Assembly (NCBI GenBank): GCA_032185465.1
Contig: GCA_032185465.1_4549.1
Strand: one strand, 5' to 3'
DNA: 40,535 bases
Source of the DNA: a phage
Of this stretch, positions 1,482-26,551 are shown one piece after another (position 1 is the stretch's first letter; every line of letters starts with the position of its first letter). The notes beneath the pieces were generated by a model, which did no database searches, was not told where the DNA came from, and saw only the letters and a list, made by a program, of their open reading frames with translations. Made by a program: the position numbers and the translations under genes.

Positions 1482-2366
1482 CTACAGGCTTGAGGCAGCT
1501 ACCTTAGCGCGAACTTCCATCGTGTATTTAGCGTCACGCAGGTATCGCGGGTCACTCATAGCCTTAATCATGTCAGCCTTGGAGCTGAATGCTTCGGTCT
1601 GAGGAGCCTTAGGTGCGACCACAGGTTTAGCCTGAGTGGTGATGGTACGCTGAGGTTTAACACCCACAGCTTTACTCAGAGTCTTGCCAGCCAGATTCAG
1701 CAGAGCTTTGGTAGTCGCAATGTCCTTACGAACGATGGCAGCTTCCAATGCTTCACGAGTTGACGGGTCGTTGGACTCAAGGTGTGACAGGATGCGATTA
1801 AACTGTTCAGCACCACCAGCGTAGCGAACCACACCAGCGGCATACTGTTCAGCCAGAGCTTCCTGACCACGGACAAACGAATCTACGAAACGCTTGGTGT
1901 AACCTGCTTCCTGCAACTTAGCGTAGGATGCGTCAGACAGCTTACCGTCCTTGGCGTATTCAGCCTTGATAGCGGTAATTTCATCAGCAGTGACCTTGCC
2001 AGCTTCTACAGCAGAAGACACCATGTCGTCAAATGCAGCTTCGTTTTCATCCAGAGCGGTGACACTTTCAGTCAGCTCTTTCGGTGCATCACCTAGTTCG
2101 ATGAACTCAGGCTGCTCACCATCGGTCTCAGACTCTTCGTCATCGGACTCGTGGTCTTCTTCACCTTCAGTCTCGTCGACGTTATCGTCTTCTTCGGTAG
2201 CCTCTTCGGTTTCAGCTTCCAGTTGCTTGAAGGTAATAGCATCGTCGCCATCACGAACCGATACGTCCTGTTCAAGCATAGACTTCTGGTGTTCGTTCAG
2301 GTCCTCAACGGAACCAGTGATTGCATTAGAGCTAACGCCGAACTCGGCATAAACTGATTGAGACAT
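1482..2366 (-). CDS. capsid assembly (scaffolding) protein, gp9-like
   Basis: 294 aa, highly acidic; conserved C-terminal KAMSDPRY and AKLQEAGYTK..FVDSFVRGQEALAEQY blocks as in T7 gp9; between portal and capsid. Confidence 0.9.
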   Translation of the reverse strand: MSQSVYAEFGVSSNAITGSVEDLNEHQKSMLEQDVSVRDGDDAITFKQLEAETEEATEEDDNVDETEGEEDHESDDEESETDGEQPEFIELGDAPKELTESVTALDENEAAFDDMVSSAVEAGKVTADEITAIKAEYAKDGKLSDASYAKLQEAGYTKRFVDSFVRGQEALAEQYAAGVVRYAGGAEQFNRILSHLESNDPSTREALEAAIVRKDIATTKALLNLAGKTLSKAVGVKPQRTITTQAKPVVAPKAPQTEAFSSKADMIKAMSDPRYLRDAKYTMEVRAKVAASSL

Positions 2367-2467: not shown

Positions 2468-4031
2468 CTTGAGCCATGTCCTCACCAGCTCCCTGACCTA
2501 CAGCAGCACCCATGTTAGCACCAGCAGCACTAGCACCTTGGACAACTGCCTGTTGAGACGACTGCTCAGCCATGCGCTGAATCTTCTCGTCTTGCGTCAG
2601 GAGTAGGCCAGCGGTGTCGATACCCAGAGCGTTCAGGAGTCGCAGCTTAAGGGTCGGCAAATTGATGTCCGGGTCCTGAGATAGCGGCTGAAGACCAGTC
2701 ATCATGTTAACCGCCTGAGTCAGCTTCTCCAAGTCCTGACCACGGCCCAGAGCTTCCAGACCAGTTGAGACAGTAGGCTCTACCGCTTCTTTCGGAAGGT
2801 CAGGAATCATGCCAGCAGACTGAAGTTGGTTCATCAGCACACGGACGATAGGTAACTGAAGCTCTTGGGATTGTACTGAGTACACGCCACCTAAGGTCGC
2901 CTCCAGTTCGCCAGCAACATAACGAATCTCTTCAGCAGTGACTCTCTCGGCATTACGCTGAACAGCACTATTAAGAAGGAAGGCCCAGCCTAAACGTTGC
3001 TCGATAGCATCAGCCACCGACTTGGCAATCGTAAAGTCCTGACCCTTAGTCAGTTGCAGGAAGTTGATGTCCTCAACGCGACCAGCAACGAACTCACCTG
3101 TAGCCGCCTTGTTCAGACGACGAGGTTGCGTGATACCGTTCGGGTTAACGAGGCCCACCACCTTGGAGGCTACCTTAGCCATTTTGGTGATAGCTTCTGT
3201 AATCGTCTCCAGCGAGTTCAGGTCCCCCAGATACTCCTCGCAGTAAGAACGACCATAGTCTTCACCATCCAGTCGAACCATTCGTACCGGGATGTATGGA
3301 CATGCAGTCAGTGGGTAGGAACCCTCTGTCCCTGCTACCTCAATGCCTTCCACTTCCTCATAACGTAGATACTCGTCGTCTTGACGGTAGATGTGCGTAT
3401 ATACTTCCAGCTCTGTGTCAGGCTCATAGTCGTCTGCGTTGAGTTGTGACTTAACGTCTTCCGGTAGAGCACTAAACGCTACCTTGTCGAGAGTCACAAT
3501 CTGCAAGATATTACCGAAAGCATCACGTTGAACAACGTAGGACACTAAGCGGTACATTCGCATAGGACTGTAAGTACCTTGTTCAGGCTCTGGAATGTAG
3601 AGCAGACAGTTACCGGAGACGATAAGCTGCTTCAGAGCTTCGAACAATGGGACACGGAAACTGTTAGTCTCCATGTAGGCCATCAACACACGCTCGACCA
3701 TAGCCAGCCCTTCGTCAACACGAGCAGCAGCCTCTGAGTCCTGACTCAAGGTCTTGGCCTCATATTCGGAGACTGTCAGTCGCATCCACGGTGACTGAGG
3801 GAATAATGCCAACATCAGCTTTGCAGCCAAGTTGTTCAAACAGCGAGCACCTACAGCTTGCCACGGAGTTGTGTACTCAGTAGACGAGTTGTCGGACTCC
3901 TTAGGAAACAGTGACGGGATAGTGACAGCAGCACAGTTCTGAGCGCGTGTCTCATATGGCTGTCTACCGTTCTTCAGTCGGTCATAAACCGCTTTGGCTC
4001 CTTCAGCAGCGAACCCTTCACGTTCAGCCAT
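2463..4031 (-). CDS. portal (head-tail connector) protein, gp8-like
   Basis: 522 aa; strong similarity to recalled T7 gp8 (YETRAQNCA, PWQAVGARCLNNLA, YRLVSYVVQRDAFGN, RLDGEDYGRSY). Confidence 0.97.
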   Translation of the reverse strand: MAEREGFAAEGAKAVYDRLKNGRQPYETRAQNCAAVTIPSLFPKESDNSSTEYTTPWQAVGARCLNNLAAKLMLALFPQSPWMRLTVSEYEAKTLSQDSEAAARVDEGLAMVERVLMAYMETNSFRVPLFEALKQLIVSGNCLLYIPEPEQGTYSPMRMYRLVSYVVQRDAFGNILQIVTLDKVAFSALPEDVKSQLNADDYEPDTELEVYTHIYRQDDEYLRYEEVEGIEVAGTEGSYPLTACPYIPVRMVRLDGEDYGRSYCEEYLGDLNSLETITEAITKMAKVASKVVGLVNPNGITQPRRLNKAATGEFVAGRVEDINFLQLTKGQDFTIAKSVADAIEQRLGWAFLLNSAVQRNAERVTAEEIRYVAGELEATLGGVYSVQSQELQLPIVRVLMNQLQSAGMIPDLPKEAVEPTVSTGLEALGRGQDLEKLTQAVNMMTGLQPLSQDPDINLPTLKLRLLNALGIDTAGLLLTQDEKIQRMAEQSSQQAVVQGASAAGANMGAAVGQGAGEDMAQA

Positions 4032-5433: not shown

Positions 5434-6335
5434 AGGATGACCTCCTTGGACTTAGGGTCGTAGTCGGAGGCTCGGCAAATACGAGCGACCTGAGCTTGGA
5501 CCAGAAGTTCCTCCTCGGTCATCCCAGCTTTAGCAGCCAGAGTCACCATGCAGTCCCACAGCGTCATGTCGTCACGCTTTGGATACTTCTTCCACTCAGT
5601 CTTAATCTGGCCTTTGTTCTTACCAGTCTTAAGCTCACGGCTCTCCTGTACGAAGTAGTACGGCTCGTCAAGGAACGCGCGTGTAGTATCCTCACCCATC
5701 CCCGGAATGCCACCGTAGCCATCTGTGGTGTCACCCTTGATGGTTTGCTCCATGTGCCAGTAGTCTGCCTCAGCAGTCGTATGACTCAGGATTTCACCAG
5801 TGGTTAACCAGAAGAACTCACAGTTCGGGATGGTCTTGAAGTCCTTATCACAGGACACCAGAACAGCATGGTCACAGCCTACAATCTGAGGTCTGGTCCC
5901 GATGATACCCATACAGTCATCACCTTCAAGCGTAGGACGCAGGAAGCTGTTGAACCGTGGGTCAGCCATCACTTCGGCTACGAACTTCTTGTAACCTACA
6001 GGCTTGCGGGAACCTTTACGGTTGGCCTTATAGGTTGGCAGAACGTCCTTACGCCAGTTGTAATCGTCGGTGAAGCACATCACAATCTTAGCGTCTTTCC
6101 ACGCCTTGCGCTTCTTAACGATTTCAGCGATGGTGTTCTCAAGGATACGACGAGCCTTGGCGTGGTCGCAGATAATGGTCCAGATGTCATCACCCCAGTC
6201 TGTCTCGTCCTCGGCAGCAGCCATAGATGAAAACACTAAGTAGTCACCATCTAACACAAGAGCTATTTTCTTTTCGCTCACAGGCATCCTCCATGTTGGT
6301 TCAGGAACTTGGTGCCAGCAGCGGTAATCTCCCAC
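5415..6335 (-). CDS. 5'-3' exonuclease, gp6-like
   Basis: Strong similarity to recalled T7 gp6 (DGDYLVF, CDHAKARRILE, NWRKDVLPTYKANRK, SCDKDFKTIPNC, TLWDC...AKAGMTEEE). Track start 6335 is GTG; ATG at 6287 is an alternative. Confidence 0.93.
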   Translation of the reverse strand: MGDYRCWHQVPEPTWRMPVSEKKIALVLDGDYLVFSSMAAAEDETDWGDDIWTIICDHAKARRILENTIAEIVKKRKAWKDAKIVMCFTDDYNWRKDVLPTYKANRKGSRKPVGYKKFVAEVMADPRFNSFLRPTLEGDDCMGIIGTRPQIVGCDHAVLVSCDKDFKTIPNCEFFWLTTGEILSHTTAEADYWHMEQTIKGDTTDGYGGIPGMGEDTTRAFLDEPYYFVQESRELKTGKNKGQIKTEWKKYPKRDDMTLWDCMVTLAAKAGMTEEELLVQAQVARICRASDYDPKSKEVILWTPSM

Positions 6336-6487
6336 GCACCGTTGTTACGCCCGTCCATAGACAGACAGCTCAGATGTCCACGACTCGCAGCCTCAGCCAC
6401 CAGTGCCGCATTGTTGCGCACGTAGTTGGACTGGAAGGTCTTCGGGCAGGACTTAAGGGCCGCTAGGACCCGTAAGTATTCACTCAT
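6278..6487 (-). CDS. gp5.7-like protein
   Basis: 69 aa, MSEYLRVLAALKSCPKTFQSNYVRNNAALVAEAASRGH..., near-colinear with recalled T7 gp5.7. Confidence 0.85.
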   Translation of the reverse strand: MSEYLRVLAALKSCPKTFQSNYVRNNAALVAEAASRGHLSCLSMDGRNNGAWEITAAGTKFLNQHGGCL

Positions 6488-17443: not shown

Positions 17444-20125
17444 TTAAGCGAATGCAAAGTCTGAAGACAAGATGTCTTCGATATTCAGTTTACCTTTCTT
17501 CGGAAGCTCAGGCAACTTGTCGCGCTGACTTTCATGAAGCTGGTATTCAAACTGCTCGTAGAAGTCAAGCAGCACATCGTTATCGCGGTAAGTCTCTACC
17601 ATCGTCTCACGGACGCCACGGAACAGATACTCAGCGTCAGCCGGGATGGTCCCGAAGCTATCGTGAATCACTGCGAATGACATCACGCCATACTTTCGGT
17701 GAGTGTGGACTACAGTCTTGCGGAGGTGGCTACCATCTTGTGAGTGGACGAAGTTCGGGCTAATGCCTGACTCCTGCTTGTGCTTGTCCAGCTCTTTCTT
17801 CGTACCTTTGTTGACCGTAGGTTGAAGGTTGAAGGACCCTAAGAACATCAGGTTCAGACGAGTGGTATCCTTCTTGCGGTATTCCTGCCAGACCGGGAAC
17901 CCATCAGGTGTGACCCAGTGTACCGGAAGGCATGGCTTCAGGATTTCACCAGTCTTCTTGTCCTTCACTTCAGCAGCCAGCAGCTTGGCGGCACCTTGAA
18001 GCCACTTCATCGCGTCAACCGCAGCAACTACTGTCACACTCACAGCTTCCCAAATCATCTTAGCCATGAAGCGAGACGCTTGGCTTGGCTCGGTGAACAT
18101 TGCTCCCTTACCGGAGTCAATCGCTGGCATCACGGTGTCTTCGAACACTTGGTCGGCGAACCCATACTCTTTCGACCCGTAGGCCAGAGTCATGACCGAG
18201 CGCTTAGTGACCGAGCGAGACATACCGAATTGCAGCCACTGACGCGCAAGACTCTTGGTCCCAAGCTTCAGGCGTTCGCTGATTTCCCCAGTCTTCTTGT
18301 CCTCTACGGTCACCAGCTCGTCGTCCGTACCGCTCAGTAATAGCTCTTTCAACTGGTCTGACACACGGTCTGAGACTATACGGTAGATGTCCTGCACCTG
18401 ACCAGACGGCGTTAAGTTCACTGCATGTCCGCCTACGTGGTCCCTCAGCATCGCGCTGAAGTGCTGAATCCCCGAACACGAGCCGTCGAAGGCAATCGGA
18501 AGTGAGCAATTGTAGGTCAAGCCATGGTTCATCACCCCAGAATACTCGAAGCAAGCCGCTAGGAAGCAGAAGGGGCTGTCCATACTCCCCCACCACTCGA
18601 TGCTGTCCATCGGTGATTTGGCTGCTGCCAGAATGTTCTCGTGATTGTCTTCCACCCATTTGATACGCTCCTCAAAGGTTACCTTATCGACACCCGCGCA
18701 GTTGGCGGTGTGGACTTTAAGCCATTTGAAACCATCCGCCCCGATAGGCTTTCCGACCGCCAGAGTCAGTAGACCCTTCTGCATGTCGTTACCCTGAGGG
18801 TTGAACATCGGGACAGCGTAGACACGACCTCGCCAATCCATGTTGTACGGGAACCAGATGGCCTTAAACTGTGAGAACTTGTTGGCCTGTGATACGATGA
18901 AACTCATGGACAATCTGCGTGACTGTCTGGCCTTCTCGCGGCGATAGATACCAGCAGCAGCCTTCTTCCATGCCTTGAGTTCCTCCTCGGTTTCACCAGA
19001 ATAGTCCTCAGGCTTCAGCGGTTCCATCTGAGGGATGTCATCAATAGGCGTGTTGTTCAGCTTCTCGACCATGTTCACCACGTCCAGAACCTTCTTGTTA
19101 ACTTTCCAAGGTGTATTCTGAATGATGTTCACAGCGTCATAGACTTCAGGCATGTATACGTCTTCATAACGTGCTACCGCAGACTTAGACCCTAAGCGAA
19201 TCAATGGTAACGGTCTGCGACCTTTGGCCCAGTACCCACCACCTACGACACCAGTCCACGGCTTAGGTGGAACGACGCAAGGCTGGTAGACTGGAGCGAT
19301 ACCCGCAAGGCTGAATCCTCGTTGTGCCATCTTCTTGACCCAGAAGTCTGACAGGTGGACCATCTCTACGTCAGCCGCTGCATTACCAGCACCGTACCGC
19401 TTAAGCTCGACCAGTTGTGTTGACTGGATGACAATCTCGAGCATCTTGATGCCAACGTGGACAGCCTCTGTAGGACTCCAAGTCCCCCATGCATCTTCCA
19501 GTTGGCCTTGCTCCAGCATGGACGCCTCGACCGCTTGCATGTAGGCTTTCTTGTAGGATGCCCCAGCTCGCTTGTTCAGGTTCTCAGCTATCGCCTTCTT
19601 GAAGTGCTCCTTCTCTTTGTCACGGATGCGACCGAAGCGGATTTCGTCCTCAAGTGTGCGACCTATCGCGGAGGCCATCGGTGTAATCGGTATCCCTTCA
19701 GGCTTGACCAGCTTGGAGAGTATGACCTTCAGTATGATAACCGCAGCGGACTCACAGGAGATGCGCATAGAGCGGTCCTTTACGGCCTTCTCTTCAGTGC
19801 TCAACATGGTGAACGCTACGCTAGGACGCGAGGTTGACAGCTTCCCGTCTAGGCCTTCGTGCCACTCCCTGACGGCTTGCGCAATCTTAGGGACCAGAGT
19901 CTGCATCAAAGGCTTGGCGACCTGATTGTCTGCCAGTTCCCCGCGCTCAGTCTGCCGCTCAAGGTTCTTGATGAAACGTCGCTCGCCTTCTGTATATGCC
20001 TCATGCTCAAGCTGAAGCTGTTTGACTGCAAGGTCTTGCCCGTAGTGGTCAGCCAGCAGGTTAAACGGCTCAATGGCGTTCGACACATCAGAGAAGTCGT
20101 GTTTGTCAATAGAGATGACGCTCAT
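17444..20125 (-). CDS. T7-type single-subunit DNA-directed RNA polymerase, gp1-like
   Basis: 893 aa; near full-length colinearity with T7 RNAP (KARKSRR, WFPYNMDWRGRVYA, LPLAFDGSCSGIQHFSAMLRD, VTKRSVMTLAYGSKEFGF, PNFVHSQDGSHLRKTVV, HDSFGT, C-terminal FAFA). Confidence 0.98.
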   Translation of the reverse strand: MSVISIDKHDFSDVSNAIEPFNLLADHYGQDLAVKQLQLEHEAYTEGERRFIKNLERQTERGELADNQVAKPLMQTLVPKIAQAVREWHEGLDGKLSTSRPSVAFTMLSTEEKAVKDRSMRISCESAAVIILKVILSKLVKPEGIPITPMASAIGRTLEDEIRFGRIRDKEKEHFKKAIAENLNKRAGASYKKAYMQAVEASMLEQGQLEDAWGTWSPTEAVHVGIKMLEIVIQSTQLVELKRYGAGNAAADVEMVHLSDFWVKKMAQRGFSLAGIAPVYQPCVVPPKPWTGVVGGGYWAKGRRPLPLIRLGSKSAVARYEDVYMPEVYDAVNIIQNTPWKVNKKVLDVVNMVEKLNNTPIDDIPQMEPLKPEDYSGETEEELKAWKKAAAGIYRREKARQSRRLSMSFIVSQANKFSQFKAIWFPYNMDWRGRVYAVPMFNPQGNDMQKGLLTLAVGKPIGADGFKWLKVHTANCAGVDKVTFEERIKWVEDNHENILAAAKSPMDSIEWWGSMDSPFCFLAACFEYSGVMNHGLTYNCSLPIAFDGSCSGIQHFSAMLRDHVGGHAVNLTPSGQVQDIYRIVSDRVSDQLKELLLSGTDDELVTVEDKKTGEISERLKLGTKSLARQWLQFGMSRSVTKRSVMTLAYGSKEYGFADQVFEDTVMPAIDSGKGAMFTEPSQASRFMAKMIWEAVSVTVVAAVDAMKWLQGAAKLLAAEVKDKKTGEILKPCLPVHWVTPDGFPVWQEYRKKDTTRLNLMFLGSFNLQPTVNKGTKKELDKHKQESGISPNFVHSQDGSHLRKTVVHTHRKYGVMSFAVIHDSFGTIPADAEYLFRGVRETMVETYRDNDVLLDFYEQFEYQLHESQRDKLPELPKKGKLNIEDILSSDFAFA

Positions 20126-20194
20126 ACTTAAAGTCCTTGTTATTAGTCTTTCACTTAGAGTCTCTTTGGTCTTTCACTTGGAGTCTTAGACCTT

Positions 20195-20217
20195 GAGTCC
20201 TATAGTGATAGTTAAGT
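20195..20217 (-). promoter_or_regulatory. phage RNAP promoter immediately upstream of the RNAP gene: ACTTAACTATCACTATAGGACTC
   Basis: Near-consensus promoter whose +1 lies about 75 nt upstream of the RNAP ATG; the leader carries a direct repeat gtctttcactt(a/g)gagtct. Confidence 0.7.
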
Positions 20218-20222
20218 CAGAA

Positions 20223-20549
20223 TTACTTGCATATCAGCGGGTTAGCGTGGAGATGACTGAAGTCACCATGAGTCGTGTGCTTGATGGTTGACCGTTGGTC
20301 TATCGCCTTCCAGCCTGAGACTAAAAGTTTACCATCGTCAGTGATTGGTCGTCCACCATACACCAGACACATCAGTTCGGACTTATGGCCCTCAGCCCGG
20401 AGTCTTGCTTGCAGTACCCGGTCCCGCTCCTGCTGTTGACGTGCGGAGTGACTTGACGTTCCGTGACGATACCCGGTAGCCAGTAGGCTTAACATTTGCA
20501 TGTCTGCGTCCATAGAGTGTACCAGATTAATCCCGTATGACTTGTTCAT
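20223..20549 (-). CDS. hypothetical early protein, 108 aa
   Basis: ATG-initiated ORF in the gene 0.7 position; no kinase motifs and no recognised homology. Confidence 0.55.
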   Translation of the reverse strand: MNKSYGINLVHSMDADMQMLSLLATGYRHGTSSHSARQQQERDRVLQARLRAEGHKSELMCLVYGGRPITDDGKLLVSGWKAIDQRSTIKHTTHGDFSHLHANPLICK

Positions 20550-20923
20550 TACAGTTTGCTCCCAAGTGTTGCTGTATCCCAGACGTTCGCTAAGTTACGC
20601 ATGAATCGTCCGTTAGGTTGACGTACAGTCCAGCTACCCAGACGTACATATTTGAATTTGTAGACTTTACGCGCTTTGTTGATGTCTCTCACCAGCACGT
20701 AGGCGATAAGTCCATAGCCTATGGCTATCAATAGTGCGATACTCATAGTCATAAGCCCCATAACAGTTGAGTAAGGACCGGTAGTTTGCAGACTAGAGTA
20801 AACATTCCCCACGCTACGAAGCCTGAGATAGTCCAGATGATTGCAGTGCTCATAGTTAACTCCTATCAATGTAAGTGGTAATCTTTGAGGCCACCTATCA
20901 GTCGATGACCTCTCGTCTATCAC
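20549..20923 (-). CDS. hypothetical early protein with one predicted transmembrane segment (start uncertain)
   Basis: Track ORF starts at GTG 20923; internal ATGs at 20761/20752/20746 precede hydrophobic MSIALLIAIGYGLIAYVLV. Stop overlaps the next ATG (TAATG). Confidence 0.45.
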   Translation of the reverse strand: MIDERSSTDRWPQRLPLTLIGVNYEHCNHLDYLRLRSVGNVYSSLQTTGPYSTVMGLMTMSIALLIAIGYGLIAYVLVRDINKARKVYKFKYVRLGSWTVRQPNGRFMRNLANVWDTATLGSKL

Positions 20924-20985
20924 TCAGTACCATCACGTCAGTGTTATGGTCAAGCTATGATTTGGTTCTCTCCTGTTTATTTAGG

Positions 20986-21213
20986 TTACTCGCCGTCTCC
21001 TTCTGTAAGGCTATCGTCTATTAATTCAAATTTACCGTTTGAGTGTTGGATAGCCTCTTGTCCGCAATGGTCGCAAACCACCAGTTTATCGAACCCGTCA
21101 AACTCGTCACCTGCTACGCAAGAAAGTACGAATTTATGATTGGTGCATACTTCTTGCGTTTCACCGAAAATTGCTCGAAAACCTTTGGTTATGGCACCAG
21201 TGATTGTGTTCAT
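20986..21213 (-). CDS. hypothetical early protein, 75 aa, putative zinc ribbon (C-X7-C ... C-X2-C)
   Basis: ATG at 21213, preceded by the duplicated 70-bp leader element; four Cys arranged as a possible zinc ribbon. Confidence 0.55.
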   Translation of the reverse strand: MNTITGAITKGFRAIFGETQEVCTNHKFVLSCVAGDEFDGFDKLVVCDHCGQEAIQHSNGKFELIDDSLTEGDGE

Positions 21214-21218
21214 ATCTT

Positions 21219-21289
21219 CCCTCTCAGTTGTTAATGACTATCAGTCAGGGCCTTCAGATGTAGACTCAAAGACCCTGTAGTTAATCACT
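21219..21289 (-). repeat. 70-bp conserved leader element, copy 2 (putative RNase III hairpin upstream of second early gene)
   Basis: 69/70 identical to 22041-22110; RNA folds with stem CAGGGUCUU/AAGGCCCUG. Confidence 0.6.
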
Positions 21290-21525
21290 ATCGCTAGCAA
21301 GTATCGCGCTTCATCATCTCGTAGCACCCGTCGTAGAACGCTTGTTCGCTGCTATAAGTTATCTGGTGCATTGTTGGTTATCCTCATCGTGTAAGCTGTC
21401 GTGTATACGCTTGCGGCCCTCGTAGACCGCTTTCAGGTGACGCATAGTCGCATCGTGGTTTAACTGCCCGGTCTTGACCATAAGTCGGGCGTTGGTGACG
21501 TGGTGCTGGCATAAACCGTAAGTTA

Positions 21526-22032
21526 TCATCGCTCGCAGTCCTCAGCCGCAGGGTCGAACACTACGTTATCATTGATGTCTTCCACCTTCAGGTGGCGACC
21601 TGCCGCATAGTTAACCTTGGCACATGCAGTAGCAACCTCAAGAGCTACAGCTTGCACAATTATTGCGCCTGTTTTAGCGTCAACTACCCAATATTCATCC
21701 TCTTCGTCTGCCTCTTCATCCTCAAACCAGACTACATCCAAGCCATTAGACACATCGTTATAAAGCGCCTCATAGATGCGAGCTTGTAGGATACGCGTTA
21801 CGTCCTTGGTTTCAGGCATCATCCCAGAGTCTTCGAACTCGTGGTCTATACCATCAGCAGCCATCACCGTAAAAATCTCGTGGTAATAGTGCGGAACTTG
21901 ACCGTCTACGGCCTCATGCAGCGCATCGCTGTAGTCATCATCTTGAGTCAGGTGGTAGTACTGAATACGCTCGATAAATGCCTCAACGGTTGCAGCCAGC
22001 AGCTCATAGTATGCGTTAGCGTTACGTTCCAT
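21526..22032 (-). CDS. ocr: Ocr-like anti-restriction DNA-mimic protein (gp0.3) with about 50-aa C-terminal extension
   Basis: 168 aa; [45 protein letters not shown] colinear with T7 Ocr, acidic stretch follows; first gene after the host-type promoters. Confidence 0.85.
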
Positions 22033-22040
22033 AGTTATAT

Positions 22041-22110
22041 CCTCTCAGTTGTTAGTGACTATCAGTCAGGGCCTTCAGATGTAGACTCAAAGACCCTGTA
22101 GTTAATCACT
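22041..22110 (-). repeat. 70-bp conserved leader element, copy 1 (R0.3-like hairpin upstream of ocr)
   Basis: Same element as 21219-21289; the preceding GCTCTTTAACAATCTGG block (minus strand) is conserved with the T7 early leader as I recall it. Confidence 0.6.
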
Positions 22111-22226
22111 GTCGGCGCACATTAAGAGTTTATCCAGATTGTTAAAGAGCATTCCCTTCAGTCAGAGGACTTCAGGTAGACCGTTTCAGTGTTGGTCGTC
22201 ACCGTTGTTTCGTGTTGATGTGGTAC

Positions 22227-22256
22227 ATACTACTTTAAGTCGGTACATCTTGTCAA
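22227..22256 (-). promoter_or_regulatory. host sigma70-type early promoter (T7 A2/A3-like): TTGACA-18-TAGTAT
   Basis: Minus strand TTGACAAGATGTACCGACTTAAAGTAGTATGTACCACAT; the -10/+1 context GTACCACAT matches recalled T7 A3. Confidence 0.55.
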
Positions 22257-22368
22257 CTACTTTCTGTCATCTGCCTGTTGTTCGTATGACTTATCAGGCT
22301 GTCTACTTAACCGGGATGACCCGGCGTCTTCACTATCCGGTTGTTGCCGTGTCGTGTTGACGGAAGCT

Positions 22369-22397
22369 ATTAAGCCATAGTCTGGACCTGTAGTCAA
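22369..22397 (-). promoter_or_regulatory. candidate host sigma70-type early promoter (A1 position): TTGACT-17-CTTAAT
   Basis: Perfect -35, weak -10; followed by CCGGTTAAGTAGACAGCCTGATAAGTC, nearly identical to the recalled T7 post-A1 region. Confidence 0.4.
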
Positions 22398-22554
22398 TAG
22401 GTAATCTTAAATAATATTGATTAAGCTATCGTCGGCCCCATAGTGACTAAGAGGATATAGTCTTTGACTAACATGTTTAAGACCTTAAGTCTATAGCTTT
22501 GTGTCTATTAACTGTGGGTCTATGACCGTAGGTGTTGGTGTCTTATGGTTGATA

Positions 22555-22645
22555 CTGTAGGTTAGTTAGACTGTAGGTTGTAGGACTGTAGGTTGTAGGA
22601 CTGTAGGTTGTAGGACTGTAGGTTGTAGGACTGTAGGTTGTAGGA
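22555..22645. repeat. tandem array: 5 perfect copies of 15-bp unit ctgtaggttgtagga plus one degenerate copy
   Basis: Direct reading of 22555-22645; lies just inside the left genome end, like the short repeats next to the T7 terminal repeat. Confidence 0.9.
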
Positions 22646-22649
22646 CCTA

Positions 22650-22867
22650 TGGTTATACAGATAGAGACTCAGAGACAGACCCATAGCCCCTACCTATCGT
22701 CCTGACCTCCAGCCATAGCCTAGACCTATCGTTGACCTAACGTCTTGACCATCGGTCCAACCTTATGATAGACTGGCTGTGACTGCAAGGAGTAGTAACG
22801 GGTAGGGCCTTTGGTCTTGACTTAAAGAGGGCCTATGGGGGAGACTTGAGGTTATTGAACTGTGAGA
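22650..22867 (-). repeat. candidate genome left terminus and direct terminal repeat (concatemer junction near 22867)
   Basis: Minus strand from 22867 reads TCTCACAGTTCAATAACCTCAAGTCTCCCCCATAGGCCCTCTTTAAG, matching the conserved T7/T3 left-end sequence as I recall it. Repeat length and inner boundary are not determinable here. Confidence 0.4.
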
Positions 22868-23106
22868 TGTGGTCTCAAACTTTTGGTCCAAAACTCATCG
22901 TCACTACTGTAGGCCACAGCTACTGTAGGTCAAGGACCGTAGGTCAGGCGACACTAGGATAGACCAATAAGTAGGATGACCCTAAGTGAGCTTCTATTAA
23001 GGTGTTACCTAAAGTCCTTGACTACAGTAGCTAAGGTCAGTAGAGTGAGTCTTTATCCACGTACTGACCTTAGGTCTTCCGCTCATGAATCGTTACCATG
23101 ATTGCG

Positions 23107-23265
23107 TTAATTACACTGAGACACCAGAGAACATACGAGAGTCTCGACCCACCCGACCCACTTACTTCCAGCAGTAACGCCAGCAGCAAGTAGAACAGCA
23201 GCAAGAAACCTGTATGTAGCTCGATTGGTCGCCAGAGCTTTAAGTACAGCTTTGGTCTTTGCCAT
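23107..23265 (-). CDS. small hydrophobic protein, 52 aa (gene 19.5 position)
   Basis: MAKTKAVLKALATNRATYRFLAAVLLAAGVTAGSKWVGWVETLVCSLVSQCN; ATG with GGAGGT upstream, downstream of the phiOR-like promoter. Below the ORF-track cutoff. Confidence 0.45.
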   Translation of the reverse strand: MAKTKAVLKALATNRATYRFLAAVLLAAGVTAGSKWVGWVETLVCSLVSQCN

Positions 23266-23445
23266 ATGCTACATACCTCCTGTATCTATGGTCGGTGACT
23301 ATCTATATTGGAGGGATTATGATTAATATCACCCTCCTTCCATCGGTGCAAGCCTTAGGTAAGAACTCGGAGTCTGCCTCCTAAGGTCTTGCATAAAGTC
23401 TGCATATGTATATTCACTACAGTAATACTATAAGTAACCGGGGGT

Positions 23446-23468
23446 CTTCCCTATAGTGATAGTTAAGT
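23446..23468 (-). promoter_or_regulatory. phage RNAP promoter near the right genome end (phiOR-like): ACTTAACTATCACTATAGGGAAG
   Basis: Consensus match about 100 bp after the large terminase stop. Confidence 0.8.
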
Positions 23469-23562
23469 CCAAACTCCTTATAAAACAGTAGGTTAGACTG
23501 GTAGTAACTATAGGTTACTAACTGCGTATTCATGCAGCTTTCACCCATAGTTATTCATTCAG

Positions 23563-25329
23563 CTAGTGGAACGTAACGTAGGACCCTAGTCCCAGCTCGT
23601 CGTCCGTATCGTGAGTTACCCGGACCCCATTGTCCCAGAACTCAGTGTGGATGGACTCGAAGCCTTTCCGTGGGTTCTCCATCTGTTCCTCCAGCCACTC
23701 CTCAGTGACTTCACGTTCGCCTTTGTTGGCATCCTTAGCCATAGACTCAACGAAGAACTGCACACCGATAGCCAGCGCATCAAGTCGGTCATCGTGTGCC
23801 AATGCTCCACGTTCACGAGAGATACGTGTCATCTGGTAGAAGAGAGAGTAGATAGGATTACGAACACCATCCTTATCAGAGGCAGACTGGTAATCTTGGA
23901 CGATAGCAGCAGCGTTAACGATAAGTCGGTGAGACCCCATGATAGGCTCCAGAACGTCACAGATGCGGAGTTCCTTCTGACCCTTACTCTTCACTTCAGT
24001 TACAGCAGCAGGATGAATACGGGAAGCTACAGGCTTGAATAGCTCAAGGTACATACCATCACCGAAGTTACCCTCAATGACGTATTCGTTGACCTTCCAC
24101 TTACGACCAATCTTAGCCAAGGCTTCCAGCGTAGAGTCTTCATAGCCACCTCGCATACCGCCAACTTCCATAGCGAAGATGTAGCCGTTTAGCTGGTACA
24201 GTACCGCATAACCAGTTTCATCCTTACCACGACCACTAGGGTCAATGACTAGAATCTTCTGGGTGTATGAGCTGAAGGCAGAACCTACAGTCTGATACGT
24301 GTGGTATGAGTCACCCATGAGTCCAACGTTAGGAACGTCCTCACGCTTGTTCTGAGGGTTAGGAAGCCATTGGTATATCATTGGGCTAGACGCTTGGTCC
24401 AAGTCTGCTACGATAAGGTCACGGAGCTTCAGAGGGTACTTCTCGGCATCACTCAGGTTAGGGTTAAGCATGAACTGTAGAGCGAAGCCAGCTTTGCCAT
24501 AGGACAACTCACGTTCCTTCAGGTCCGTATCATCGAATCGTACTTCATCGGTAGGACGCCAGTAGAAGGACTCAGGGTCCTCTTCCAGCTCTGCCTGAAG
24601 CATAGGAGCCAGACGGTCGCCGTAAGACTGCCAGTCCTTCTTATCACGTGGATAACGAGCAGGCCAGATAGTAGTGGTGTATCCACGGCCTTCCAGCTCA
24701 CGATACAAGGTCATCTCATTCTGAGGAGTACCCAGATAGATGATTGTACCTCCCGGCTTCAGGATAGCGTCGAACTCTTTCACAAGCTCTGACAGACGGT
24801 CTCGTGCGGCCTGAGTCGCTGAGTTGTTCGGAACCTCCACGTCATCAGCAATCAGGATGTCAGCACGACTACCAGTCAGCTGACCAGTGATACCAACGGA
24901 CTTAACCGAAGGTGAGTGGTCTGGCTTAGCTGGCCCAACGTCAAAGCTGATAACAGCATCTCGCTGCCCCTGCTTAGGTTTGAGTTCCTGAAGCTGAGGC
25001 ATGAGGTCGATGATTCGCTTGATGAAGATGGAGTTCGCATCGGCTCGTTCCTTTGAGGCCGACACAATCATGAACTTCAAGTCTGGGTTGTTCCATAGCT
25101 TCCAGACCACAAAGCCACAGGTCAGAAACGACTTGCCAATACCACGGAAAGCCTGAAGGATGAAGCGGCGATTATCACCAGCAGCCAGCTTCTTACACAT
25201 ATCTATCTGGCAGCGGGTTGGAACCGGAAGGCTTAGTGCTTTCCAGAGAACGAAGATGAAGAACACGAAGTCGTCCCTCATCCTTTGGGTCATTTCTGCC
25301 TGTCTTTCAGCAGGTGTTTTCTTAGACAT
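23563..25329 (-). CDS. terminase large subunit, gp19-like
   Basis: 588 aa; near full-length colinearity with T7 gp19 ([116 protein letters not shown]). Confidence 0.98.
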
Positions 25330-26186: not shown

Positions 26187-26244
26187 AGTTGCCCTCCCGG
26201 TTTATCAGATTTCACGTAGAGTTGCCTCCACTAGTTAGTGTTAA

Positions 26245-26285
26245 CCATAAAGGCCACTACATATAGTAATGACCTTGAGTCTAAC
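26245..26285 (-). promoter_or_regulatory. conserved RNA hairpin, putative RNase III site (R18.5 position)
   Basis: Third copy of the aaaggccac...tgaccttgagtct motif, in the 100-bp gap between small terminase and Rz. Confidence 0.5.
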
Positions 26286-26287
26286 AC

Positions 26288-26551
26288 TTATTGAACACCA
26301 TACCCGGTGTCATTATCCTCAGTCGCTGAAAGCACCTTATCGTACTCTGCGTTCAGGGCCTCCATATCAGCCAGCGTCTTCTCGTCCACAGACACCTTGC
26401 TTAACACAAAGTTGTGACGAGCCAGTAGCTTCTCAATGGCGTTGTAAAGCTGAGGTGAACGCTTAGTGTCATCCCGCAGGTCTTGCAGCATGAGTCGAGC
26501 ACGTTCAGTATCTAGCATTAAGAGGAACTTCTCTAAGCCCATCTGCGTCAT
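26288..26551 (-). CDS. terminase small subunit, gp18-like
   Basis: 87 aa; FLLMLDTERARLMLQDL..RSPQLYNAIEKLLARH colinear with recalled T7 gp18. Confidence 0.9.
   Translation of the reverse strand: MTQMGLEKFLLMLDTERARLMLQDLRDDTKRSPQLYNAIEKLLARHNFVLSKVSVDEKTLADMEALNAEYDKVLSATEDNDTGYGVQ

Follow-up and report, generated by a model that had tools for sequence, protein, structure and literature searches.

The first early gene of the window, ocr, and a gene for a 75-aa protein that follows it are each preceded by a copy of the same 74-nt element. Both copies are very probably RNase III processing sites of the R0.3 type, each followed by a leader that carries an RBS. Copy 1 is the native site, copy 2 heads an accessory gene cassette that seems to have been imported, and the near-identity of the two is best explained by recombination between paralogous hairpins. 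Strand and position, fold, covariation and homology to reference sites all place the element among the long-known RNase III sites of the T7 group.

The window is the whole stretch of phage DNA that was analyzed (40,535 nt; contig GCA_032185465.1_4549.1). Its 2-kb early region matched 423 phage records, the best of which are Kayfunaviruses (K1F-like, T7 group; 93-96% identity), and position 1 of K1F aligns near window position 22867. These matches mark the window as a permuted, reverse-oriented Kayfunavirus genome of the K1F type. The early genes are on the minus strand, with both copies of the repeat on the same, coding strand. The ORF list contains no kinase-sized ORF (gene 0.7 equivalent) between ocr and the RNAP gene. 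In order of transcription, the features that concern us are:

22227..22256, minus strand: candidate host-RNAP early promoter, sigma-70-like, TTGACA-18-TAGTAT (10/12, by consensus match only), about 115 nt upstream of copy 1
22041..22114, minus strand: repeat copy 1, paired region 22054-22110; tail CACUAACAACUGAGAGG with SD GAGG at 22041-22044 for ocr
21526..22032, minus strand: ocr (gene 0.3 homologue, 168 aa), first early gene; Pfam PF08684, 101.9 bits
21359-21529, minus strand: 0.4-like ORF, 56 aa, on the predicted ocr mRNA
21294-21371, minus strand: 25-aa ORF, on the predicted ocr mRNA
21220..21293, minus strand: repeat copy 2, type-A upper stem (see below), paired region 21232-21290; tail with SD GAGG at 21220-21223 for the 75-aa gene
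20986..21213, minus strand: accessory gene for a 75-aa protein with Cys at positions 23, 32, 47 and 50; phrog_32657, a group of unknown function
20960..20985, minus strand: 3' end of the putatively imported cassette, an apparent siphovirus intergenic vestige that retains the RBS of the following siphovirus gene and, in mutated form, its start codon (AACAGGAGAGAACCAAATC; siphovirus XY1 has AACAGGAGAGAAACAAATG)

The PHROG matches for the segment with ocr and the 56-aa 0.4-like ORF are phrog_2568 and phrog_5058. The 75-aa protein had no match in Pfam, PADLOC or PDB sequences.

A repeat search delimited the element as a direct repeat of 74 nt (21220-21293 vs. 22041-22114; 72/74 identical, 97%) with a spacing of 821 nt. 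A sensitive blastn search with the element across the whole 40.5-kb window returned no further copies, and other matches were ≤13 nt. The sequence-only reading had reported a near-perfect 70-bp duplication, and the 70-nt core is indeed 69/70 identical (blastn against the window, E 7e-34). Its coordinates were right to within one base, the start at 21219 being off by one, with the repeat ending at 21220. Both copies lie downstream of the stop codon of the preceding ORF and 6-8 nt upstream of an ATG; the claim that each ends a few nt before a start codon was likewise borne out (8 nt to the ocr ATG at 22032, 6 nt to the ATG of the 75-aa ORF at 21213), as was the naming of the gene at 22032 as ocr, given the Pfam match above. 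RNA folding also returned the hairpin that had been proposed, with more to it than the 9-bp stem first described: the structure is two-tiered, with an internal loop and an upper stem.

Folded as minus-strand RNA, each copy has a lower stem of 8-9 bp, an asymmetric internal loop with an isolated C-G pair, and an upper stem of 10-12 bp, with an energy of -22 to -23 kcal/mol (z of -2.8 to -2.9 relative to dinucleotide shuffles). The two substitutions that separate the copies preserve the fold: in one of them G-U replaces a G-C pair, while copy 2 owes its ninth lower-stem pair to the second. The upper stem comprises 10 regular pairs plus 2 past a one-base bulge (9 bp in T7 R0.3), near the roughly 11 bp of helix between scissile bond and apical loop that a minimal RNase III substrate is said to need. 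Substrates of RNase III are recognized as irregular hairpins of about two helical turns, with proximal-box and distal-box determinants in the case of the E. coli enzyme (PMC1540722).

The lower stem, a bulge, the isolated C-G pair, a 2-nt/3-nt loop and the upper stem all recur in T7 R0.3, and the resemblance extends to the sequence itself. The motifs AACU..AGGG / CCCU....GAU..UCACUAAYAACUG..GAGG are common to the copies and T7 R0.3, including the tail CACUAAYAACUG..GAGG, and the arrangement between the two stems (in dot-bracket notation, '.(..(((...)))...).') is common to the copies, T7 R0.3 and T3 R0.3, and is found in T3 R0.5 too. In the T3 RefSeq record (NC_003298), the equivalent hairpins are labelled 'RNase III recognition site R0.3/R0.5/R1'; for T7, NC_001604 and V01146 list promoters and CDS and no RNase III features. 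At a permissive threshold over 17000-24500, Rfam, which is without a family for T7 RNase III sites, gave chance-level matches only.

We aligned 12 sites: the 2 of the window, 3 from K1F, one each from PM129, ST1749 and LM33_P1, and R0.3 and R0.5 of T7 and T3. The consensus structure pairs 97.3% of cells, vs. 26-46% in slid controls. Compensatory double changes occur in 8 of 19 pairs, and the observed score was reached by 0 of 500 shuffles, for sites that are related and a structure that was derived from the same sequences. The three types of upper stem described below (A, B and C) are unrelated in sequence, and all of them pair.

A covariance model was built from this alignment, so that its training was on R0.3/R0.5-type sites only. 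Over the first 7 kb of T7 (sense strand, E ≤ 1) it gave exactly five matches (851-906, 1426-1484, 3099-3154, 5846-5901 and 6411-6458), at what we take to be the positions of R0.3, R0.5, R1, R1.1 and R1.3; the last three of these sites were outside the training set. The annotated T3 R1 site was recovered as well. Since the T7 early precursor RNA is processed at five sites (PMC4858673), these results indicate that the model is a fair detector of T7-group RNase III sites. Applied to the window, it found six sites, all on the transcribed (minus) strand and located between genes or beside phage promoters, with the two copies of the repeat scoring highest:

22048-22113, minus strand: repeat copy 1, 67.6 bits, E 1.5e-14
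21227-21292, minus strand: repeat copy 2, 66.2 bits
26231-26291, minus strand: R18.5-like by position, 51.1 bits
20868-20927, minus strand: R0.5-like, third early hairpin, 50.7 bits, E 2.2e-10
16824-16884, minus strand: R1.1-like by position, 39.7 bits
9550-9600, minus strand: R4.7-like by position, 38.0 bits

A search of the literature for RNase III data on K1F or Kayfunavirus found nothing relevant.

The third early hairpin bears on which T7 site each copy represents. The site at 20868-20927, which was also compared in sequence with T3 R0.5, resembles T7 R0.5 and the third site of K1F in the motif GAGTGATAGAC...GATTAYCACTT (as RNA, GAGUGAUAGAC...GAUUAYCACUU); its lower stem contains an A.C mismatch that is common to LM33, ST1749, PRF-SP1 and MopsHU1. 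This common motif identifies 20868-20927 as the counterpart of T7 R0.5. Copy 2 has arms, loop and tail of the R0.3 type and is positioned one gene (or cassette) upstream of the R0.5-like site, so equating it with R0.5 would be wrong. The correspondence to R0.3 and R0.5 that had been drawn from position was thus correct in that the hairpins are of the RNase III type and copy 1 is a sequence-level homologue of T7/T3 R0.3, and needs amending for copy 2, which appears to be an extra R0.3-type site.

From the fold and the alignment to T7, a processing scheme can be proposed. Host RNA polymerase would produce one polycistronic early RNA (minus strand) from promoters left of 22.2 kb. Each hairpin would stack to about two helical turns and be bound by host RNase III, and the asymmetric internal loop would limit cutting to one phosphodiester on its 3' side. 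By alignment to the T7 sites, we predict cuts at U22064|G22063 in copy 1, U21243|G21242 in copy 2 and A20884|G20883 in the third site. The T7 coordinates used for this purpose are 890, 1468, 3138, 5887 and 6448, where Dunn and Studier reportedly placed the cuts in 1983. All five fall at one structural position in the five early sites, 4 nt beyond the CCU at the end of the upper stem, a uniformity that supports these coordinates. The RNA upstream of each cut would be left with a stable 3' hairpin protecting it from 3' exonucleases, and the mRNA downstream would begin with a standard leader of 29-31 nt (GAUAGUCAYUAACAACUGAGAGG..AUG). The expected products are an 821-nt ocr mRNA (22063..21243), which would also carry the 56-aa 0.4-like ORF and the 25-aa ORF, along with a monocistronic mRNA of 359 nt (21242..20884) that encodes the 75-aa protein. 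The early polycistronic RNA of T7, made by the host polymerase, is cut co-transcriptionally by RNase III (PMC4858673, PMC1540722, PMC6938266), and internal loops are known to restrict the enzyme to a single cut that leaves a protective 3' hairpin (PMC1540722). RNase III is dispensable for T7 growth (PMC4858673, PMC6938266), which suggests that the fitness value of the sites is modest.

To place the two copies, we compared nine Kayfunavirus-type early regions. All have hairpins of one family with the same arms (AGUGAUUAACUACAGG ... CCUGACUGAUAGUCAYUAAC) and interchangeable upper stems:

Type A: upper stem starts GGGUCUUUGAG...; occupies the first position downstream of the host promoters in all genomes examined
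Type B: upper stem starts GGUCGUUAG...; found upstream of ocr and behind extra cassettes in K1F, LM33_P1, ST1749 and PM129
Type C: upper stem starts GGUCAUCAAUG...; found upstream of the 75-aa gene in LM33_P1 and ST1749
Hairpin arm: 13-nt CCTGACTGATAG

Type C is a chimera: it matches the R0.5-like site in its 5' flank, its 5' arm and the two strands of its upper stem, and its 3' loop, 3' arm and tail are of the R0.3 type. A type-A site directly before ocr, as in the window, is present in Bia, Pkp-1, PRF-SP1 and MopsHU1. The first three have the 5' flank, hairpin and tail of copy 1 (or a 1-nt variant of the tail), and MopsHU1 has the hairpin with a different tail; the copy 1 junction is 99.5% identical to that of EcoIv41_Bia. 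This arrangement in four simpler relatives identifies copy 1, by homology, as the native R0.3 site before ocr. K1F, LM33_P1, ST1749 and PM129 have 1-2 extra small genes behind site 1, encoding proteins of 81 aa (phrog_10124) and 92 aa (phrog_9817), with a type-B hairpin after each extra gene. The number of R0.3-type sites among the genomes runs from 1 to 4 (2 in the window, up to four in PM129), roughly one per cassette. Our first inference, that site 1 had recombined with the ocr site and the window had thereby lost the 81-aa gene, was dropped after type A was seen directly before ocr in the four simpler relatives; the short arrangement may be the ancestral one.

These comparisons also bear on whether the element acts chiefly on translation, as the sequence-only reading had suggested in proposing a shared translational control element. 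The leader would then be a common operator or an RBS-masking structure through which the two genes are co-regulated at translation, with RNase III incidental. Both copies do have the same tail and an SD a few nt before an ATG, several T7 mRNAs reportedly need processing by RNase III to be translated optimally (PMC4858673), and the modelled accessibility of the ocr RBS rises from 0.48 to 0.65 on cleavage. However, the SD is outside the hairpin and largely unpaired in the MFE and centroid folds of both copies, and the modelled accessibility of the RBS of the 75-aa gene is essentially unchanged by cleavage (0.68 to 0.64). An SD-masking switch was rejected on these figures, the modelled effect being small for ocr and absent for the 75-aa gene. 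Furthermore, in most relatives type C precedes the 75-aa gene and type B precedes ocr, so an identical upper stem is not required at these genes, and the features that all sites conserve are the pairing and a loop that matches the T7 cut sites. Beyond the common SD tail there is little in favor of translational control as the main role, and we regard it as improbable.

The reading of both copies as R0.3-type processing sites leaves the question of how copy 2 came to precede the 75-aa gene. This gene is absent from K1F, Bia, Pkp-1, PRF-SP1 and MopsHU1. By tblastn, its product is 100% identical in LM33_P1/ST1749 and has 90-93% amino acid identity to proteins of 44-45 kb siphoviruses of the genus Kagunavirus. 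At the nucleotide level, the homology with siphovirus XY1 starts at the SD and ends ~27 nt past the stop codon (blastn, window 21233..20960 vs. XY1 1724..1998, 87%), where XY1 gp59 starts at locus position 1997; the XY1 locus compared has no hairpin. The vestigial downstream RBS and mutated start codon at 20960..20985 suggest transfer of the gene from a Kagunavirus-like siphovirus to a podovirus, the direction being read from that one RBS.

The junction at copy 2 (unique 5' flank, type-A hairpin and gene) occurs in only nine database records, those of the PM129 group and LI10P1, at 95-97% identity and with 60 nt of the unique 5' flank included. Other Kayfunaviruses with the 75-aa gene match from the 3' arm onward only, and most have a different upper stem there. 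In IMG/VR, six contigs contain the type-A core, each of them once within the stretch stored; duplication is uncommon. None of the matches listed combines both junctions of the window. The flanks of copy 2 differ in their closest relatives:

Left of copy 2: closest relative PM129, 98-100%
From CCUGACUGAUAG of copy 2 rightwards, 1.15 kb: closest relatives LM33_P1/ST1749, 99.5-100%
Same right-hand region: PM129, 87-96%

A PM129-like left side joined to an LM33/ST1749-like right side places a crossover inside the copy 2 hairpin, within CCUGACUGAUAG, where the 3' arm begins, and marks the window as a mosaic. The type-A upper stem of copy 2 would be explained if paralogous hairpins with common lower-stem arms recombine with one another, and the copies would be near-identical for this reason.

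A simpler course of events would be a recent duplication within one genome, in which copying or gene conversion brought the hairpin of site 1 to the second site and different phages exchanged nothing. The copies differ at only 2 of 74 positions, the arms common to all of the hairpins would permit short-patch conversion inside a single genome, and the arrangement of type A before the 75-aa gene must have arisen once, possibly in this way in an ancestor of the PM129 group. However, the presence of the copy 2 junction and its unique flank in nine other records means that it predates the genome of the window, and the sequence to the right of the junction, which is of the LM33/ST1749 type and much less similar to PM129, requires a crossover between genomes at the hairpin. 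We think it unlikely that duplication within one genome accounts for copy 2. The recent duplication that had been put forward was right in spirit, and the mechanism is better described as an exchange, by recombination or gene conversion, between paralogous hairpins from different genomes, with the parental type switching inside copy 2. A stable GC-containing intergenic hairpin before two genes could also be a transcription signal (early terminator, attenuator or promoter), but this is highly improbable, as there is no U-run after the stem, scans found no terminator-like or promoter-like pattern inside either copy and 0 terminator-like sites in 20100-22900, the phage-promoter-like sites are outside both copies, and the homologues in T7 and T3 are RNase III sites, not terminators.

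Recombination at the R0.3-type hairpins may not be confined to copy 2. Among the homology-breakpoint ends in all ordered pairs of the nine early regions, 128 of 384 (33%) are in hairpins, or 49 of 168 unique ends (29%), vs. 10% expected by length. This is an approximately threefold enrichment, with ~70% of junctions elsewhere, and the pairwise comparisons are non-independent, such that a nominal p-value is not meaningful. The clear cases are copy 2 and the chimeric type-C site. The data lend modest quantitative support to the hairpins as favored, non-exclusive recombination junctions. More tentatively, and with the odds somewhat against it in our judgment, the R0.3-type hairpin-leader units could be portable adaptors in K1F-like phages: their conserved arms would be preferred crossover points at which cassettes of small early genes, including genes taken from unrelated siphoviruses, are inserted, deleted and exchanged, and each newcomer would be provided with its own processed, stabilized and translatable mRNA. 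If this is true, the units would be an RNA-processing analogue of the PeSL system of T4, and the 74-nt direct repeats that flank ocr should yield ocr-deletion variants at a measurable rate.

For annotation, the 74-nt repeat is best entered as two putative RNase III sites of the R0.3 type, with the R0.5 equivalent at 20868-20927; on this assignment, the early transcript should yield three processed mRNAs with defined ends. For the engineering of K1F-type phages against K1 and ExPEC E. coli, the hairpin-leader would offer a natural, compact insulator and expression adaptor for early genes, and near-identical copies on either side of ocr are a potential source of genetic instability. In evolutionary terms, the locus would provide a clean example of a small gene, common to podovirus and siphovirus genera, that was plugged in behind a resident processing site, and adds modest quantitative support for regulatory hairpins as favored recombination junctions in the T7 group.

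The kind of feature described here is ordinary and long known; the particular feature of this locus is a second copy that heads an apparently imported accessory gene. Like R0.3 of T7 and T3, copy 1 is the first site after the host promoters and is immediately upstream of gene 0.3/ocr, and the hairpins are two-tiered, their asymmetric internal loop containing a single isolated C-G pair. The predicted distance from cut to AUG is also similar to that of T7 R0.3 (29-31 nt vs. 34 nt). Differences from R0.3 of T7 and T3 are in the 3' side of the loop (GACU|GA here, UUAU|GA there), a longer lower stem (8-9 bp vs. about 5 bp), a longer upper stem, and an apical loop of 7 nt instead of a GNRA-type tetraloop. 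There are two predicted sites in the window and up to four in relatives (PM129), vs. one each in T7 and T3. R0.5 of T7 and T3 belongs to the same hairpin family, and the likeness to it in the window is at 20868-20927, while copy 2 is of the R0.3 type.

The promoter-early stem-loops (PeSL), through which T4-type phages shuffle accessory genes as modules, are likewise short, repeated, structured motifs that flank small, non-essential early genes (PMC2839356, PMC4122927). Insertion, deletion and replacement junctions between close relatives occur at the PeSL, and in our comparison about 30% of the homology breakpoints are in hairpins (about threefold enrichment), explicit cases being copy 2 and the chimeric type-C site. 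However, PeSL are units of promoter plus terminator, whereas the elements in the window appear to be RNA-processing sites with neither; and mini-circle formation has been demonstrated experimentally for PeSL, whereas our case is one of sequence comparison, with most breakpoints outside hairpins. The 75-aa gene also invites comparison with morons, as it is an add-on that is missing from simpler relatives and present in the unrelated genus Kagunavirus at ~92% amino acid identity. Classical morons bring their own promoter and terminator, whereas the 75-aa gene would use a resident RNase III hairpin and leader and the early transcript of the phage. In this respect it appears to behave like a moron that has borrowed a resident processing site.

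The 75-aa gene is carried by both Kayfunavirus podoviruses and Kagunavirus siphoviruses, with 87% nucleotide and ~92% amino-acid identity in sequence comparison. The homologous stretch and a neighboring small segment lie at the following positions:

20960-21233, minus strand: homology stretch of the 75-aa gene, matching 1724-1998 of siphovirus vB_EcoS_XY1 (locus L006)
21294-21388, minus strand: 95-nt segment with a 25-aa ORF and its own SD, with the 0.4-like gene on one side and copy 2 (the hairpin leader preceding the 75-aa gene) on the other

Behind the podovirus copy of the 75-aa gene there are still remnants of the following siphovirus gene, namely a vestigial RBS and a start codon that has mutated, which suggests that the 75-aa gene was captured by a podovirus from a siphovirus. 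The encoded protein contains four cysteines (positions 23, 32, 47 and 50) and matched no family of known function. PM129 carries the 95-nt segment at 98.9% identity, and Pkp-1 and MopsHU1 carry it at about 86%; in the latter two, a 41-aa gene is annotated at the corresponding position. The segment is missing from K1F, LM33_P1, ST1749 and Bia. Its 25-aa ORF may represent a truncated small gene.

From ocr to the RNA polymerase gene (20126-22032, minus strand) there is no ORF big enough for a gene 0.7-type protein kinase, the biggest ORF between the two genes being 124 aa. RNase III is stimulated by the T7 kinase, which the window phage probably lacks. Several GenBank relatives have ‘protein kinase’ or ‘N4-like RNA polymerase’ labels on ocr or its neighbors; these look like annotation errors.

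Upstream of the RNA polymerase gene and near the genome end, three further elements were recorded:

20198-20215, minus strand: phage-promoter-like motif, exact match to TTAACTATCACTATAGGA
20143-20186: two tandem repeats of 21-23 nt, TTAGTCTTTCACTTAGAGTCT / TTGGTCTTTCACTTGGAGTCT as read on the plus strand
22554-22672: tandem array of six 15-nt units, GACTGTAGGTTGTAG as read on the plus strand

The start codon of the RNA polymerase gene (20125) lies ~73 nt downstream of the promoter-like motif, which is one of 10 such sites in the window, all on the minus strand (chance expectation, 0.04). A candidate phage promoter ahead of the phage’s own polymerase gene would mean positive feedback; in the T7 record, gene 1 has no annotated T7 promoter upstream. 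The two tandem repeats are placed between this motif and the start codon, where a search with the RNase III-site covariance model turned up no R1-type hairpin. The six-unit array is close to the point at which the left genome end of K1F aligns (about 22867), and is probably a short-repeat array of the kind adjoining terminal repeats in T7-group genomes.

The lower stem of the R0.5-like hairpin (20868-20927, minus strand) contains an A.C mismatch, with GAUUACCAC in place of GAUUAUCAC; the mismatch is common to LM33_P1, ST1749, PRF-SP1 and MopsHU1, and absent in K1F, Bia, PM129 and T7. The covariance model also predicted three further sites:

26231-26291, minus strand: RNase III-site match, 51.1 bits
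16824-16884, minus strand: RNase III-site match, 39.7 bits
9550-9600, minus strand: RNase III-site match, 38.0 bits

Judged by distance from the genome’s left end, these predicted sites would correspond roughly to T7 R18.5, R1.1 and R4.7, respectively. A phage-promoter-like sequence adjoins the predicted site at 16824-16884, much as R1.1 adjoins phi1.1A in T7.
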